Shown one piece after another: positions 3,018 through 50,476 of a stretch of DNA of 64,000 nucleotides. Each line of letters starts with the position of its first letter. The stretch's first letter is position 1. A program made the position numbers and the translations under genes. This DNA comes from a virus. The stretch is taken from positions 1 to 64,000 of IMG/VR virus record IMGVR_UViG_3300024256_000001. One strand, written 5' to 3'. Under the pieces are notes generated by a model. That model searched no databases, was not told where the DNA came from, and saw only the letters and a program-made list of their open reading frames with translations.

Positions 3018-6000
3018 TAGAACAGCCCCCCTTGTGACGCCGCCGCGTCAGCCTCTTCGCGCTCGCCAGCCGCCACCGCATCAGCCGCCGCCTTGCTGGC
3101 CGCCGCCGCCGCTGCCTTGTCTGCATCGCTGCCGCTCTCGTGCGCCTTGCGGTGAGCCTTGGCCGCCGCCGTGTGTGCGTCCTGGGCGCGCTCCTTGGTG
3201 CTCGTCCACTTGTCGCCCCCCCACCGCTCGGGCAGGCCCTCGGCCTCGGCCTCGTGCTTGTCAGCCTCGCTGGCGTGGTCGGTGGCGGGGCCTGCCTTCT
3301 TGGCCGCCGCTGCCGCCTTGGTGGCCTTAACGTGCTTCTCCCGATCTGCTGCCGCCTTGGCCTGGGCCGCGTCCTCATCGGCCGCAGACCCGAACGCCTC
3401 TTCAAAAATCGTGTCGGCGCGCTTCTTGTCGTAGAACGCCAGCGGCTCCGCGCCCGGCTCCTGCTTGTGCGCCTGCTCGGCGTACTTGCGGAACACCTTG
3501 GCGAGCTGGACGGGGCCGCCTTGGTGGATCAGCGCGTTCAGGATCGCAGTCGCGCGCGCGTTCGGCCCCTGGGCAGGGTGCAGCCCCGTGGCCATCTTGC
3601 CGTCAACCTCGCGCGCCTTCACGTTGCGCTGCCACGCCTCCAGGCTGGCCGCGCGCCCCTTCTTGCCCTTGGGCAACCCGTACTTGTCCTGAATCTCGAC
3701 CACGGCGTCCAGCGCGTGCGCCAAGTCCTCTTTGACGCCGTAGTCAGCCCCCGCGCCCTCGGCCTGCACCATGTACGGGACCGCGCGCGCCAAGGACTCC
3801 ATGATGCTCTGCGGGACCTCGCTCAGCAGGTCCGCATCAGGCACCATCGACCCCACCAACACGTTCTCTACCAGGGCTACGCCGTTCTGATTCAGCCGCC
3901 CATTCTTCATGTATGCGTTTTGATTGGCCGCGCTGATCACGCCCGCCCGCTTGAGCTGGTTGACGAATCCCTCCGCGCCCTTGCCGCGCAGGTAGGCCGC
4001 CAGCGTCTCGTCAGCGCCCATGCTGGTGCCCAGCTCGGCCAACACCTTGCTGTCCATGCGCCGCGCCTGGGCCACCGCCATCGTGCGCGGGTCCATAGCC
4101 TGCGTCATGCTCTCGTTGAGCTGGCGCACGAGTAGCTGCTTGTGGGCGTCGTCGCGCGGCTGCACCTTGCGGACCAGAACGGGAGCCTTCATGGCGTCCA
4201 CGTCGTCAGGCTTGAAACCGAACTGCCGCGCGTTGTCCTTGAGGTAGCCCTTGAGATCAGCCGCCTTCGCGCCGCCCTGCCGGTAAGCCCGTTTCATGCT
4301 CATGCCGCGACTGTTGCCGCCCAGCACCACCCCGTTCTCATCCACGATTGGCGCGCCGTTGGTGGCGTCTGGGTTGGTGTTGATCACCAGATCGGGGCGC
4401 AGGTTCTCAGCGTTGCCGATCACCTTCAGCTGCTCGGCCTTGTCGCGATGATAGGCCCGTTCGTTGCCGACGTTGTGCCGTGCGTCCTTGCTGAAGGTGG
4501 CCGGGTCGTGAGACGTGATCACGTCGTCGGCATCCATCAGCACCCACTCAGCGCCCATCGGCTCAGGCTGGCCAAACTCGCCCGCGACGTAGACCGTCGT
4601 GTGTGCGCCCTTTTTGGTGGGCTCGGTGCGCGGGGCGACGGATTGCAGCCCGCCCAGGAAGACGCGCAGCTGGTTCATGGCCGGGTCGTCCCGCATGCCG
4701 GGGTATGCCTGGGCCATCGCCTGCAACTGGCCGATCATGTGCGCCGCCCGCACCTTGGCCAGCGCCTCCGCGCTCATCTTGGCATCCATAGCCAACGGCT
4801 GCTGCTCAGCGTCGGGGCCTGGGGTCAGGGCCAGCTTGAGCACTTCACGCAGGTGCGCGATCTCGGACGTGGCTCGGTTGACCACACGCTCCATCGCCGC
4901 AACGGACCGGGGCAGGTGGATCGCCGCAGCAACGTGCTTTGTATCCACCGCCTCCGCGCCGTCAGCCTTGGCCAGATTCTCAGCAGCTCGGGACAGCTTG
5001 CGGTAGTTGCGCGCGACCCAGGCCGTCTCACGGTCCAGCATCGACCCGATCAAGGTCTGCCGCGCGCCGTCCGTCCAACCCTTGCGCTCCAGGGTCCAGC
5101 GGATCGCGCGCTTGGCGTCGTCGGCGTTCACGCCAGCGCGCCCCAGCGCCTTCTCCAGCTTGGCGTGGACCTCGGGCAGCCGCTTGGCCATATCGGCAAA
5201 ACGCTGGCTGTCGGTGTCGCCTTTCAGCTCGCTCAGCAGCTCCGCAGGCACATGCTTTAGCACCGCACCCGCGTACTGCCTTGCGCGCTTCTCGGCCCAC
5301 TCGTAGAAGCGGGACCCGTAGTGCTCGGCGAGCATCTGCGTCCACTCGTCGTGGCTGACGGTCTTCTTTTTGCCGTCGTCGCCCTCGATGGTCAGGCCCT
5401 CGCTGTGGACCTTGTGAACCTTGATCTTCTTGCCGCCCAGGTTGACCTCTTCGCCCTCCTGGGCGCTGCGCGCGCTGCTGCTCTCCGCGTAGTAGTAGCG
5501 CCAGCCGCCGCCCGGCTTGGGCACGCGCCGAACGTACTTGTGCGAGCCCGCTTGCTGCCCCTTGATGGCCTTGGCGAGCATGGCGCTGAACGCGCCGTGA
5601 GCCTTGCCGAACAAGCCCAGCTGTTGCTGGGGTTCGGCCTGCTTCTTGCGCTCGCTCTGGCGCTCAAACAGCCCTTGCTGGGCGCTGTCGGCCTTGGGCT
5701 TGCGCCGGGCCTTGGCCGTGGCGGGGGCCTCGCCGCGCCGCCCCACCAGCGTGCGCCCAGCCCCGTCCGCCTGGACGTGGTAGCCCGCCGCCTTGAGCCG
5801 CCGCACCACCTTCTCATTGTGGCCGCGCTCAACGGCGTGCAGCTTGTCCACTTCCTCGGGGCTCAGGTGCGCCTTGGGCTTGCCCGTGTGATCCCGATGG
5901 TGCGACTCAATGTGCTTGACCTCTACCAGCGTGGCGCTGTGCTGCCGGACGTGGACGCCGCTCGCCCCACCCTTGCTCGGGGTGGCGTGCCTGCCCTCGC

Positions 6001-6244
6001 TGTGACCGTGCGCCCGTAGGTGGCGCGCCAGCTCCCCCTGCTCGATGCGCCGCAACGGTGCCTTGCGGTTGCTGCCCTCGTCGGCCGCGCCCAGGATGCT
6101 GGTCTGCCGGTGCTCCAGGCCGCTCGCCGCGTGCCAAGGGATCGTGTGCGCCGCGTCGGCCCACTTGCCGTTTTTGGGGCCAATGAACGGACCTTGCTGG
6201 GCCTTGGCGATCACGTCTCGCAGGGTCAGGTCACGCACCGACAC
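3017..6244 (-). CDS. large polyvalent-type protein with central ParB-like (DdrB-type) domain
   Basis: 1075 aa, GTG start 6 nt after AAGGAGG. The region VITSHDP...ENGVVLGGNSRGMSMKRAY (about 4085-4552) resembles ParB/Srx-fold GxxR domains. Carries the shared modules WADAAHTIPW and SHKYVRRVPKPGGGWRYYY, plus QQGLF, QLGLF and a C-terminal QGGLF. Confidence 0.6.
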   Translation of the reverse strand: MSVRDLTLRDVIAKAQQGPFIGPKNGKWADAAHTIPWHAASGLEHRQTSILGAADEGSNRKAPLRRIEQGELARHLRAHGHSEGRHATPSKGGASGVHVRQHSATLVEVKHIESHHRDHTGKPKAHLSPEEVDKLHAVERGHNEKVVRRLKAAGYHVQADGAGRTLVGRRGEAPATAKARRKPKADSAQQGLFERQSERKKQAEPQQQLGLFGKAHGAFSAMLAKAIKGQQAGSHKYVRRVPKPGGGWRYYYAESSSARSAQEGEEVNLGGKKIKVHKVHSEGLTIEGDDGKKKTVSHDEWTQMLAEHYGSRFYEWAEKRARQYAGAVLKHVPAELLSELKGDTDSQRFADMAKRLPEVHAKLEKALGRAGVNADDAKRAIRWTLERKGWTDGARQTLIGSMLDRETAWVARNYRKLSRAAENLAKADGAEAVDTKHVAAAIHLPRSVAAMERVVNRATSEIAHLREVLKLALTPGPDAEQQPLAMDAKMSAEALAKVRAAHMIGQLQAMAQAYPGMRDDPAMNQLRVFLGGLQSVAPRTEPTKKGAHTTVYVAGEFGQPEPMGAEWVLMDADDVITSHDPATFSKDARHNVGNERAYHRDKAEQLKVIGNAENLRPDLVINTNPDATNGAPIVDENGVVLGGNSRGMSMKRAYRQGGAKAADLKGYLKDNARQFGFKPDDVDAMKAPVLVRKVQPRDDAHKQLLVRQLNESMTQAMDPRTMAVAQARRMDSKVLAELGTSMGADETLAAYLRGKGAEGFVNQLKRAGVISAANQNAYMKNGRLNQNGVALVENVLVGSMVPDADLLSEVPQSIMESLARAVPYMVQAEGAGADYGVKEDLAHALDAVVEIQDKYGLPKGKKGRAASLEAWQRNVKAREVDGKMATGLHPAQGPNARATAILNALIHQGGPVQLAKVFRKYAEQAHKQEPGAEPLAFYDKKRADTIFEEAFGSAADEDAAQAKAAADREKHVKATKAAAAAKKAGPATDHASEADKHEAEAEGLPERWGGDKWTSTKERAQDAHTAAAKAHRKAHESGSDADKAAAAAASKAAADAVAAGEREEADAAASQGGLF

Positions 6245-6419
6245 GGGTCACCTCCTTGCGCAGCCACTCGGGAACACGGCCACCGTCAGCGCGCAGATGA
6301 TCGTACAGCTCCCGGCACAAGCGCGCACGCGGAACGATGCCGGGCTCGGGGCGGATCAGCCCGCCGACGGGGCATAACATCTTGATCAGGTTAGTGGCCT
6401 GGGTGGGCGTCATGCTCAT
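6231..6419 (-). CDS. hypothetical small protein
   Basis: 62 aa. ATGA overlap with the stop of the SNF2 gene, and overlaps the start of the next gene by 14 nt. Confidence 0.45.
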   Translation of the reverse strand: MSMTPTQATNLIKMLCPVGGLIRPEPGIVPRARLCRELYDHLRADGGRVPEWLRKEVTRVGA

Positions 6420-49814: not shown

Positions 49815-49876
49815 CAGCACCCAACACCCCGCCCGCACCCGCTAAGTAAGCGGGTTGGCGACTATCTGCGCGTCCA

Positions 49877-49967
49877 CTTGATCACTTTTCCTATTGTATA
49901 AGCGCCCGGGTGCCGTCATAGTCGTTCTCAGGTTGGCGATAACCGCCAGCCGCAAAGGAGCAAGACG
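49877..49967 (+). promoter_or_regulatory. promoter-leader cassette P2
   Basis: CTTGATCACTTTTCC box, then TTGTAT (49894-49899), 17-nt spacer, CATAGT (49917-49922), CGTTCTCA, a leader hairpin and AAAGGAGCAAGACG before the ATG. Confidence 0.55.
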
Positions 49968-50476
49968 ATGGCCACCCAGATTGACCTGTTCGCCGCACCG
50001 GCCCCTACCTCCACTGAGCGCCTTCGCGCGCTGGCCTACTCCAGCCCCGGCGCGATGGCCGCTTTGTGGCCGCTGCAAAGCTGGACGTGCTGGAGGCACT
50101 GACCGACGATCTCAGCCCCCCCACCGTCTACGCGGCGGCGCTCGCTGCGGTCAACCCGTGCCTCGGCTGGGACTCCAAGGCCAGCGAGACGCCCGAGTCC
50201 GTGAGGACCCGCGCTGCGCGCCTTCAGGACCAAGACCCGGCCCGCGAATGGTCGCAGGACGGGTATCCGGCCGTCCGGCTGGGTGACCCGATGGGCTGGA
50301 CGACCAGCGGCACCTGCCTGCTCACGGTGTTTTCCGAGGGGGCGCACCAGCCTTACTCGGCCTACGACGACCGAGGGCACAGTGATTTGGTGGATCTCGT
50401 CTACGAGTCGATCACCGGCGCGCGCGTGCTCACGGAGCTGATCGACGGCGCGGTCGCTGGCGTCTGGGTCCAGTAG
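49968..50476 (+). pseudogene. cassette-1 gene split over two reading frames
   Basis: The ATG at 49968, placed exactly as in the other cassettes, opens a 44-codon frame that stops at 50100-50102. The long frame (track ORF 50066-50476) is at -1 and is open from 50018. Confidence 0.4.

Follow-up and report, generated by a model that had tools for sequence, protein, structure and literature searches.

A short linear motif, Qxx[L/M]F, in giant head-module proteins of an uncultured marine phage and its possible docking on the host β clamp

The locus and its motif-bearing proteins

The window, i.e. the whole stretch of 64 kb of DNA that was analysed, belongs to an uncultured, marine, myovirus-like phage of ~78 kb, of which the ~14 kb beyond the window hold capsid and tail genes. 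The phage itself encodes PolA and a primase-helicase, and no sliding clamp (DnaN) was detected in its genome. Polyvalent-type proteins with ddrB-ParB, SNF2, Mom-like and DUF3560-like domains are encoded between the terminase, portal and head protease genes, and these carry most of the peptides considered here:

996–1661, minus strand: head maturation protease (PHROG 1028, E 1.5e-38)
1658–2803, minus strand: MuF-like minor head protein (PHROG 115)
3017–6244, minus strand: polyvalent protein with ddrB-ParB domain, 1075 aa (Pfam PF18763, E 2e-20)
3020–3034, minus strand: QGGLF, exact C-terminus of the ParB-like protein
5606–5623, minus strand: QLGLFG, residues 208-213 of the ParB-like protein, in a disordered linker
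5666–5680, minus strand: QQGLF, non-canonical, in the same linker, 19 residues upstream of QLGLFG
6416–10009, minus strand: SNF2-family protein, 1197 aa (Pfam SNF2-rel_dom and Helicase_C)
9797–9814, minus strand: QLSLFG, SNF2 protein residues 66-71
9878–9892, minus strand: QLDLL (QLDLLSHR), SNF2 protein residues 40-44, 26 residues before QLSLFG
12357–14057, minus strand: portal protein, SPO1-like (Pfam Phage_portal; ~40% identity to SPO1-group portals)
14057–17473, minus strand: 1138-aa protein with leader, P/A/E-rich linkers and a DUF3560-like C-terminal domain
17303–17320, minus strand: QLDLFG, residues 52-57 of the 1138-aa protein
17387–17404, minus strand: QMRLFG, residues 24-29 of the 1138-aa protein
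19285–20823, minus strand: Mom-like DNA-modification protein, 512 aa (PHROG Mom-like match, E 1.2e-9)
20524–20538, minus strand: QLDLL (QLDLLSYR), N-terminal leader of the Mom-like protein
20614–20628, minus strand: QLSLG(G), degenerate, Mom-like protein, 30 residues upstream of QLDLL
21159–22859, minus strand: terminase large subunit (Pfam Terminase_6C)
22987–26049, minus strand: 1020-aa protein, function not assigned, upstream of the terminase gene
25954–25971, minus strand: QMSMFG, residues 27-32 of the 1020-aa protein
49968–50102, plus strand: 44-codon ORF starting MATQIDLFAAPAP, with QIDLF at 49977-49991 (residues 4-8)

The carriers resemble the polyvalent proteins described by Iyer et al. 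in 2017, including P1 DdrB and DarB, in their very large size, in their ddrB-ParB (PF18763), SNF2 and PAPS-reductase-type domains, and in genes that adjoin portal and terminase (PMC5512222). Polyvalent proteins are predicted to be packaged and injected; a text search of the same paper gave 0 occurrences of "clamp" and no short, peptide or conserved motif, so that it apparently does not describe Qxx[LM]F or the small tags discussed below (PMC5512222). We found no prior report of the motif in such phage proteins in the literature. Neither a metallopeptidase nor a MuF fusion is present among the motif carriers of the window.

A sequence-only reading of the window had listed eleven peptides as matches to the β-clamp-binding consensus. 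All eleven translate as given, QIDLF from the plus strand and the other ten from the minus strand, but only about eight count as canonical or nearly so: QQGLF and QGGLF lack an aliphatic residue at position 2, and QLSLG lacks F/L at position 5. Although non-canonical, QGGLF is the true C-terminus of the ParB-like protein and is kept in orthologues. The peptides were also said to be mostly followed by Gly, which is true of five core copies and QLSLG and not of the rest, and to be concentrated in the giant proteins, which holds for the core copies and not for QIDLF in its 44-codon ORF.

Statistics and conservation of the motif

The robust core consists of five Q[LM]x[LM]FG copies (positions 5609, 9800, 17306, 17390 and 25957), located up to about residue 210 in four giant proteins of the minus strand, every one in frame in a GC3-supported gene; the remaining five reading frames of the 64 kb contain none. 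From proteome composition 0.016 copies are expected (Poisson P ~8e-12, with the reservation that the leaders are paralogous modules, which makes the copies partly dependent on one another), and shuffled proteomes contain a mean of 0.007, so the core is not due to chance. With the literature definition of the canonical pentapeptide, scored as Q-[LIVM]-x-[LM]-[FL], 10 matches occur in the window proteome against 1.69 expected (P ~1e-5). Eight of these lie in disordered N-terminal leaders; QVMLL in the SNF2 core and QVELL in a 119-aa protein make up the rest and correspond to the expected background. The looser pattern behind the original eleven is likewise above chance (13 against 4.0 expected), but at that expectation some of the eleven are noise.

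The motif was described as sitting in disordered P/A/K-rich linkers, and this was confirmed: the 50-residue flanks consist for 79-88% of P/A/K/G/S/Q/E/R/T/D/N and for 10-19% of hydrophobic residues, and are basic, with a net charge of +4 to +8. In the AlphaFold2 model of the ParB-like protein, pLDDT is below 50 over residues 173-234, which hold QQGLF and QLGLFG.

In orthologues from independent metagenomes the motif has been retained at the same N-terminal position amid flanks that have diverged, which favours clamp docking. At the QMRLFG site, L002 and L006 read EGQLGLFGQMV and L003 and L004 GGQLGLFSTVV; at the QMSMFG site, L005 reads AEQLSLFGEPE and L008 AGQLGLFGAPQ. The QQGLF linker of ParB-like orthologues holds QPGLF (P0002), QGSLFG and QLGLF (P0003) or QQGLF (P0004). 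Position can shift: the SNF2 orthologue of L002 has QLGLFS before, not after, the KPPxGY module, and copies are gained and lost at non-homologous linkers of relatives. The ParB-like protein of the window itself has the linker and C-terminal copies and is missing the site just after the ParB domain.

Among 28 non-redundant ParB-like homologues, Q..[LM]F occurs 35 times against 3.6 after shuffling (z 16.6) and Q..[LM]FG 22 times against 0.3 expected, whereas scrambled and reversed variants, and variants with E, K or N for Q, are at expectation. Gln stands at -4 from the Phe in 42/124 [LM]F sites, a 7.9-fold enrichment, and Gly follows the Phe in 27 of these 42; in the wider set the following residue varies (D, E, K, R, L, V). 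There are 19 tandem pairs with spacings of 8-35 residues against 4.0 expected, and spacings of 12-33 residues recur in relatives. Seven homologues (P0002, P0003, P0004, P0010, P0015, P0023 and P0026) have …[LF]F as their very last residues, mostly in the form Q-x-[GA]-L-F-stop, comparable to QLGLF of E. coli Pol II. From these analyses, we conclude that Qxx[L/M]F, with G as its usual next residue, is a genuine short linear motif under selection, placed in leaders, interdomain linkers and C-termini of the giant polyvalent proteins of this phage and its relatives.

Candidate partners of the motif

Bacterial clamp-binding motifs have the form Q-φ-x-[L/M]-[F/L], with QLxLF as the best version and Gln as the key first residue, and are located in C-terminal tails, N-terminal disordered regions and loops; the consensus given in the sequence-only reading agrees with this (PMC11139829). 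The motif of Pol II, Pol III α, Pol IV/V, Hda and MutS/L is the same pentapeptide as the window copies, among which QLGLF is, as had been claimed, the Pol II motif (the Pol II C-terminus reads ...TGQLGLF-stop), and QLSLF and QLDLF are the consensus and the tightest-binding form. QxxMFG, found in the phage family, resembles QADMFG at residue 920 of E. coli DnaE, as do QGDMF and LGDMFGGG in P1 DdrB, a proven head protein, which lends further support to clamp docking. The critical Gln, L/M and then F at positions 4 and 5, and the placement in N-terminal disordered regions, in loops or at the exact C-terminus are common to both motifs.

This match to the peptide by which bacterial proteins grip the clamp suggests that the phage proteins may dock on the host clamp. 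Docking on the host β clamp (DnaN) is the best reading of the motif, which we hold tentatively, at a little under an even chance. Each copy would insert into the hydrophobic pocket of DnaN, in the way that Pol II, Pol III α, Pol V and Hda use this peptide, and tandem copies 12-33 residues apart could fill both pockets of the clamp dimer. The DNA-acting enzymes of the phage (ddrB-ParB, SNF2 translocase, Mom-like modifier, DUF3560-like) might thereby be tethered to clamp-carrying DNA, which could be host forks or the phage genome as it enters or replicates. Since the phage has no detectable clamp, we infer that the partner would be that of the host. Conserved copies with diverged flanks, turnover of position, Gln at -4, tandem and C-terminal copies and a phage genome that shows no clamp are all consistent with a docking-type motif, as far as sequence comparison goes. 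The earlier docking interpretation is thus partly supported, and the sequence facts under it hold.

The Mom-like protein among the carriers recalls mom of phage Mu, which is among the Mu late genes. Mobile-element proteins exploiting the host clamp have precedent: IS transposases bind β (PMC4549789) and Mu MuC enlists β for late transcription (PMC12867686). These are single, experimentally supported transposition or regulatory proteins that share with the phage carriers, as read here, a clamp motif; the window, unlike them, has several giant head-module enzymes with multiple copies of a putative clamp motif.

Several observations count against clamp docking. The phage flanks are basic, whereas those of known E. 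coli clamp motifs are mostly acidic (PMC11139829); and family-wide, unlike the β-clamp consensus, position 2 is often G/Q/A/S/T rather than aliphatic. Known β-clamp binders are replication and repair enzymes, whereas the phage carriers are virion-module proteins: all phages examined have the motif solely in giant proteins encoded in the head-morphogenesis module, and replication proteins of these phages have none. The frequent tandem arrangement within one disordered region is a further difference from known β-clamp motifs, though not one that counts against docking. The phage polymerase is of family A, a type for which we know of no use of the β clamp.

Restriction to head-module giants is exactly the pattern expected of a virion-assembly signal. 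The motif could bind a prohead component (scaffold, portal, MuF-like protein, protease or inner capsid surface) and so direct incorporation into the capsid, which we consider unlikely but the most serious alternative. The genes of all proteins with strong copies lie between those for terminase, portal, MuF-like protein and head protease, and L002, L022 and L023 share both this synteny and the restriction of the motif. Its absence from six plasmid DUF3560 proteins, including a 1306-aa conjugative polyvalent protein, fits capsid incorporation and speaks against the clamp. In three proteins a conserved basic stretch comes first and the motif follows it, 24-32 residues from the N-terminus, and the basic P/A/K-rich flanks are like those of DNA-associated internal head proteins. 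The T4 capsid-targeting signal ends at a protease site, and we know of no sequence similarity of the phage motif to it. The heads of P1 contain packaged ddrB-ParB proteins, and P1 has an N-terminal targeting sequence (PMC9024508; PMC5512222). Like the T4 internal proteins, P1 DarB has a short N-terminal signal for in-head delivery, in its N-terminal 30 residues (PMC9024508); by inspection this N-terminus bears no likeness to the phage motif, and the Dar proteins share no N-terminal consensus (PMC9024508). The phage motif, unlike such sequences, is also internal or C-terminal in many homologues, and it is missing from some giants. It recurs unchanged across different head systems and prophages of several phyla, as one would expect of a universal partner more than of a capsid protein that co-evolves, and its residue-for-residue identity with an established host motif would have to be a coincidence.

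Capsid incorporation is further weakened by a second set of conserved elements, the GG[W/Y]xYxY tags:

5489–5542, minus strand: SHKYVRRVPKPGGGWRYYY tag (β-hairpin), start of the conserved ParB-like block
9908–9988, minus strand: KPPVGYRPAKRSRKGGWTDGHGNYWYP tag module, SNF2 protein
12127–12180, minus strand: SHKYLRRVPKPGGGWRYFY tag, 784-aa PAPS-reductase protein
17162–17242, minus strand: KPPAGYHPAKRSRKGGWTDGHGHYWYP tag module, 1138-aa protein, in 6 metagenome loci
25696–25776, minus strand: KPPAGFHPAPRSKKGGFTDGHGQYWYP tag module, 1020-aa protein

These tags are present in 6/6 giant proteins, whereas the motif is found in four, with one more degenerate, so tags and motif are separable. The 784-aa PAPS-reductase giant has the tag and no Qxx[LM]F, and the MuF-like minor head protein also has no Qxx[LM]F in its sequence. 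The tags are therefore better candidates for virion incorporation than the motif. The profile for the SHKYVRRVPKPGGGWRYYY tag found 425 representative proteins. Tag-bearing proteins without ParB show modest motif enrichment (17 against 7.2), which does not favour the clamp.

Somewhat less probable still is docking on another partner (a host replication or repair protein, a chaperone or protease adaptor, or terminase), or a role in the fold for the ParB-adjacent copies. The often non-aliphatic position 2 and the basic flanks would suit another partner, but we know of none that recognises Qxx[LM]F. In the AlphaFold2 model of P0019 the sites after the ParB domain, the most conserved ones, lie in an inter-helix loop by a packed helix (pLDDT 64-75) and not in a fully disordered tail, so these ParB-adjacent copies may be structural, which also counts against the clamp. 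For copies in linkers, in leaders and at the C-terminus, the regions are hydrophilic and of low confidence and the positions turn over, so these copies are not fold elements.

Proteolytic processing after …LF (F↓G/S/K/A) by the head maturation or another protease, which would remove N-terminal propeptides and separate the domains of polyvalent proteins, is improbable. The phage does have a head protease gene, the residue after the Phe is often the small Gly, and the motif is found at the boundaries between domains, in many cases immediately before the tag of the following domain (…QLGLF-KAQGPFIGPRGGKWAD; …QLGLFG-KAHGAF…SHKYVRRVP). The leader-plus-motif layout resembles what we know of T4, a targeting sequence followed by a cleavage site. 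Polyvalent proteins have been proposed to be cut into units (PMC5512222). However, the seven homologues that end in the motif leave nothing to cut. Proteases do not usually demand Gln at P5 while tolerating variation at P4 and P3, a preference typical of the clamp pocket. P1' varies across the wider set, and the usual substrates, the major capsid protein (first 93 residues) and the scaffold-like protein, contain no Qxx[LM]F. The P1 capsid protease cleaves after Glu (Glu120 in the capsid protein), not Phe (PMC9024508).

Small open reading frames with related peptides

Clamp docking, the preferred reading, draws some support from two small non-structural ORFs that start with MATQIDLF and MGQLTIDF. 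The first, the 44-codon ORF, has a perfect AAGGAG ribosome-binding site and overlaps a 136-aa ORF (50066-50476) out of frame, and this QIDLF arrangement recurs in 18 independent contigs. The second peptide lies further downstream:

52516–52533, plus strand: QLTIDF, residues 3-8 of the third cassette gene (MGQLTIDFYQPTP)

By its letters, QLTIDF is a possible, if weak, hexameric-type relative of QIDLF.

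Occurrence of the motif in the window

The peptide motif Qxx[L/M]F, usually followed by Gly, is real in the proteome of the window and occurs well beyond chance. All eleven peptides listed by the sequence-only reading as matches to the consensus of bacterial β-clamp-binding motifs (CBMs) are present at their positions, but the consensus itself fits only part of them: QLGLF, QLSLF, QLDLF, QLDLL (two copies) and QIDLF are canonical, QMRLF and QMSMF comply if Met is counted as φ, and QQGLF, QGGLF and QLSLG deviate. The carriers are mainly giant proteins encoded in the head module, which is arranged as follows.

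Gene order of the head module (coordinates, strand, product)
22987-26049, minus strand, 1020-aa protein, first in the module
21159-22859, minus strand, terminase large subunit, after the 1020-aa protein
19285-20823, minus strand, Mom-like DNA-modification protein of 512 aa
between the Mom-like and 1138-aa genes, minus strand, fibre-like 329-aa protein
14057-17473, minus strand, 1138-aa protein with a DUF3560-like C-terminal domain
12357-14057, minus strand, portal, ~40% identical to SPO1-group portals
after the portal, minus strand, in order: 784-aa PAPS-reductase protein, 1197-aa SNF2 protein, 1075-aa ddrB-ParB (ParB-like) protein
end of the module, minus strand, in order: MuF-like minor head protein, head maturation protease, scaffold-like protein, start of the major capsid protein

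Q[LM]x[LM]F with Gly as the next residue is found five times, in four giant proteins and always within ~210 residues of the N-terminus, compared with 0.016 copies expected from composition (~19,000-residue proteome) and a mean of 0.007 in shuffled proteomes, so that the composition-matched comparison proposed with the sequence-only reading came out against a chance origin. None occurs in the other five reading frames of the window. The looser pattern used in that reading is enriched as well, but only threefold (13 copies vs 4.0 expected). Canonical Q-φ-x-[L/M]-[F/L] peptides number 10 in the window proteome vs 1.69 expected; eight lie in the leaders, the disordered P/A/K-rich N-terminal stretches, and the other two are plausible background. 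A chance origin of the motif is ruled out by composition, shuffles and scrambled-motif controls.

The disordered, P/A/K-rich surroundings described earlier are borne out by AlphaFold2 (AF2) models, in which residues 173-234 of the ParB-like protein, the linker with QQGLF and QLGLFG, have a pLDDT below 50, and by the flanks of the window copies, which are hydrophilic, P/A/K-rich and composed of 79-88% disorder-promoting residues. These flanks are basic (net charge +4 to +8), QGGLF being the sole copy with an acidic flank and a free carboxylate. A sub-variant, QL[SD]LLS[YH]R, is shared by the SNF2 leader (9878-9901, minus strand), the Mom-like leader (20515-20538, minus strand) and an unrelated representative protein, P0137 (QLSLLSYR); therefore, the conserved stretch is here longer than a pentapeptide. 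In its N-terminal part (1-279, minus strand), the major capsid protein has the clamp-motif-like KQLSLWKRIP, in which Trp replaces Phe; it probably lies inside the fold and is a chance match.

The window has a G+C content of 66-71% and makes up most of a ~78 kb phage genome that recurs as 77-78 kb assemblies in marine and other metagenomes (JGI and ENA samples). Its remaining genes encode a D5-type primase-helicase, a PD-(D/E)XK nuclease, a helicase, a family A DNA polymerase, a DNA methylase, an RNA ligase and baseplate proteins, and the ~14 kb beyond it code for capsid, sheath, tube and baseplate. By megablast, the head module had no match among cultured phages. An exact 30-nt direct repeat (42100-42129 and 44468-44497, plus strand) encodes GHRFDPADL in two different proteins, namely the PD-(D/E)XK nuclease and an 89-aa ORF directly upstream of the helicase. 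The portal ends in a long poly-acidic tail (12357-12480, minus strand; …DDEDDEDDEDDEDDEDDE…), a possible partner for the basic leaders of these giant proteins.

Conservation of the motif and of the tag modules

The starts of domains in the giant proteins are marked by three kinds of short tag modules, for which Pfam holds no model.

Tag modules of the giant proteins (coordinates, strand, sequence)
5489-5542 and 12127-12180, minus strand, SHKYxRRVPKPGGGWRYxY (HKY tag), a β-hairpin in the AF2 model
9908-9988, 17162-17242 and 25696-25776, minus strand, KPPxG[YF]xPAxRSxKGG[WF]TDGHGxYWYP
~6130-6190, minus strand, GPFIGPxxGKWADxxHTIPW, at the N-terminus of the ParB-like protein

These tags may be the real virion-incorporation or DNA-binding handles. 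The targeting N-terminus of phage P1 DarB contains EILKYIRA, a possible faint echo of a tag.

The KPPxGY…GGWTDGHGxYWYP module is present in six metagenome loci, and IMG/VR holds a syntenic relative on a contig of 80 kb. In orthologues, HGQMRLFGDMV of the 1138-aa protein is replaced by EGQLGLFGQMV or GGQLGLFSTVV, and AGQMSMFGQPE of the 1020-aa protein by AEQLSLFGEPE or AGQLGLFGAPQ; the SNF2 orthologue has the motif before the tag module, whereas it follows the module in the window. Nothing was found by protein searches with the 106-aa SNF2 leader, by scans of IMG/VR for related loci with SNF2, PolA and helicase as queries, or by a genome scan with the KPPxGY module. The full SNF2 protein retrieved its own variant only, from a candidate list suspected to be saturated by low-complexity words, and the leaders matched no Pfam family at E up to 10.

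Among 28 non-redundant ParB-like homologues, Q..[LM]F occurs 35 times vs 3.6 in shuffles and Q..[LM]FG 22 times vs 0.3, while scrambled or reversed motifs, or motifs with E, K or N in place of Gln, are not in excess of expectation. Gln precedes Phe by four residues at 42 of 124 [LM]F dipeptides, a 7.9-fold enrichment. The sites are non-homologous: they lie in N-proximal linkers, behind a GPRGGKWAD tag or the ParB domain, in P/A/K-rich linkers and at the C-terminus, the motif being the exact C-terminus in seven homologues. The window protein is without the widespread post-ParB site and has linker and C-terminal copies. Such gain and loss of sites is typical of short linear motifs, and the sequence comparisons as a whole show that Qxx[L/M]F is a selected motif.

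A profile of the HKY tag and its β-domain, searched against 1.84 billion proteins, matched 425 representative proteins, many of 1000-3000 residues. The 142 new proteins contain Q..[LM]F 53 times vs 12 expected, and the 114 of these that lack a ParB signature contain it 17 times vs 7.2; clear linker copies and tandem pairs were seen among the new proteins. Adjacent motifs spaced by 8-35 residues form 19 pairs, compared with 4.0 expected from random placement. Genomes and MAGs of Acidobacteriota, Nitrospinota, Verrucomicrobiota, Planctomycetota, Lentisphaeria, Proteobacteria, Desulfovibrio and others yielded 65 ParB-like loci, and 31 of the 54 ORFs examined from them carry at least one motif copy.

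Candidate functions of the motif

From their domains and gene setting, the carriers appear to be polyvalent proteins in the sense of PMC5512222. The giant proteins carry effector domains typical of this class (PF18763, E 2e-20; SNF2-rel_dom with Helicase_C; PAPS_reduct; Mom-like; DUF3560-like), each giant protein of the window combining one main enzymatic domain with tags, where relatives fuse several domains. Their genes have a late, packaging and virion setting; terminase is followed by giant protein(s), portal, further giant proteins, MuF-like protein and protease both in the window and in three other phage loci (L002, L022 and L023). Packaging in the virion is known only for a distant relative, P1 DdrB, from virion mass spectrometry (PMC9024508). 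Few phage proteins are larger or less well understood than polyvalent proteins.

We tentatively rank first the reading that the motif docks these proteins onto the host β clamp, DnaN, a reading that is quite possible if still short of probable. CBMs are defined as Q-φ-x-[L/M]-[F/L] or as the hexameric Q-φ-x-[L/M]-x-[F/L] (PMC11139829). The phage peptide shares with them the sequence, the critical Gln, the L/M-F pair and the kinds of location; E. coli Pol II, to which the sequence-only reading had assigned QLGLF, has this peptide at its C-terminus, and E. coli DnaE contains QADMFG. The peptide is conserved amid variable sequence, as seen in orthologous leaders, enrichment and positional turnover; it is accessible, with disordered flanks and some exact C-termini, and all carriers have DNA-acting domains. 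Docking is preferred because a coincidental match to so well-defined a consensus, C-terminal and tandem copies included, seems less likely. The peptide would occupy the hydrophobic pocket between domains II and III of DnaN, and would tether ParB-like, SNF2, Mom-like and DUF3560-like activities to clamp-bearing DNA, be it phage DNA on entry or during replication, or host forks; tandem copies would suit a dimeric target. A phage-encoded clamp is ruled out as the partner: no clamp could be detected in the window, and what remains of the ~78 kb genome consists of capsid and tail genes.

Several observations speak against the clamp. The window copies, QGGLF apart, have basic flanks, without the acidic flanks or free carboxylate that complement the pocket's basic rim and are a tendency, not a strict property, of E. 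coli ligands, and position 2 is often polar in proteins outside the window. The post-ParB sites lie in a loop that is not fully disordered (pLDDT 64-75 in the AF2 model), and these most conserved sites, adjoining the ParB domain in a moderately confident loop, may be structural. Six plasmid DUF3560 proteins contain no copy; therefore, the motif is no property of this domain or of conjugative polyvalent proteins, as far as this small sample shows. The DUF3560-like domain itself spans residues ~760-1010 of the 1138-aa protein (14057-17473, minus strand), is called 'primase' in phage annotations, and was located by tblastn on 385 plasmids, 201 of them conjugative, for example beside psiB or fused with ArdC, which looks like a leading-region, anti-restriction context.

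Gene by gene in the window and two other phages, the motif is confined to giant head-module proteins, a pattern expected of a virion-incorporation signal. We consider this function unlikely, as neither the PAPS-reductase nor the MuF-like protein contains the motif, yet GG[W/Y]xYxY tags are found in all six giant proteins, and the motif occurs also in phages with unrelated head systems (P1 and an Acinetobacter phage), as well as in prophages from many phyla. A T4-type targeting sequence is an N-terminal signal common to all internal head proteins and is cleaved off at the consensus site of the prohead protease, at which the capsid protein is processed too; the distribution of the motif does not fit this, and its internal and C-terminal copies in homologues run counter to such a signal. 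A proteolytic processing site is improbable, although an N-terminal leader ending in the motif resembles a targeting sequence followed by a protease site: C-terminal copies offer no fragment to cleave off, a protease with a strict Gln at P5 would be unusual, the residue at P1' is not constant, neither the scaffold-like protein nor the capsid protein in its first 93 residues has the motif, and P1 cuts its own capsid protein after Glu.

Two other resemblances were set aside. Motif I of C5 DNA methyltransferases, xDLFAGxGG, was dropped since no GxGG follows the motif, and similarity to the Prp/L27 cleavage motif, LNLQFF↓A, was judged too weak.

Docking to the host clamp is a plausible hypothesis, better founded than before. 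If it is right, the carriers would be new clamp clients, unusual in their multiple or tandem copies, basic disordered regions and virion-module genes. The broader proposal is possible but doubtful: polyvalent effectors of phages from many bacterial phyla would carry single or tandem CBMs in disordered linkers or tails, with injected or co-made enzymes (ParB-like, SNF2, Mom-like and others) riding the host β clamp, as a general, hitherto unrecognised targeting of anti-defence and DNA-modifying activities to DNA. A literature search found no paper linking polyvalent or packaged phage proteins to clamp binding; PMC5512222 never mentions the clamp, and term searches of it turned up a description of neither motif nor tags. 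Clamp use is described for transposases and for phage Mu MuC.

A conserved clamp-docking peptide would give polyvalent proteins a concrete targeting mechanism for reaching their substrates after injection and a short, transferable peptide handle, and would add to the β-clamp hub a new client class and another route by which phages exploit it. Should the peptide instead serve packaging or processing, a wide phage group would have in it a portable capsid-targeting tag. P1 DdrB, which carries the motif (QGDMF and LGDMFGGG), offers a model system for both outcomes. In P1 DdrB (L025), AQGDMFS (residues 355-359) and QALGDMFGGG (~405-412) are ~50 residues apart, roughly where relatives have two post-ParB sites, and QGDMF is one residue off the QADMF of DnaE.

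The QIDLF ORF and the small-gene cassettes

QIDLF had been grouped with peptides concentrated in the giant proteins; it belongs to none of them, and forms residues 4-8 of a 44-codon ORF (49968-50102, plus strand; MATQIDLF…). This ORF overlaps a 136-aa ORF (50066-50476, plus strand) out of frame, and the GC3 signal changes frame near 50070. Because 18 independent contigs show the very same overlap, an assembly error is ruled out, which leaves either a genuine pair of overlapping ORFs or a programmed frameshift. If clamp docking is general, small early peptides such as MATQIDLF… would act as clamp blockers. The AAGGAG-ATG start of the ORF is common to two other small-gene cassettes, and the third cassette gene has the N-terminus MGQLTIDF. 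Three repeats recur in all three cassettes.

Repeats of the three cassettes (coordinates, element)
49877-49937, 50536-50596 and 52420-52480, 61-nt promoter-like repeat
49944-49971, 50606-50633 and 52486-52513, 28-nt AAGGAG-ATG start region
50468-50520, 51512-51564 and 52826-52878, 53-nt repeat directly past the stop codon

With this arrangement the cassettes look like copies of one expression unit that serves early or middle genes. The 53-nt repeat folds into a G+C hairpin of very high stability (~-49 kcal/mol in two of the three cassettes) and has no T-run.
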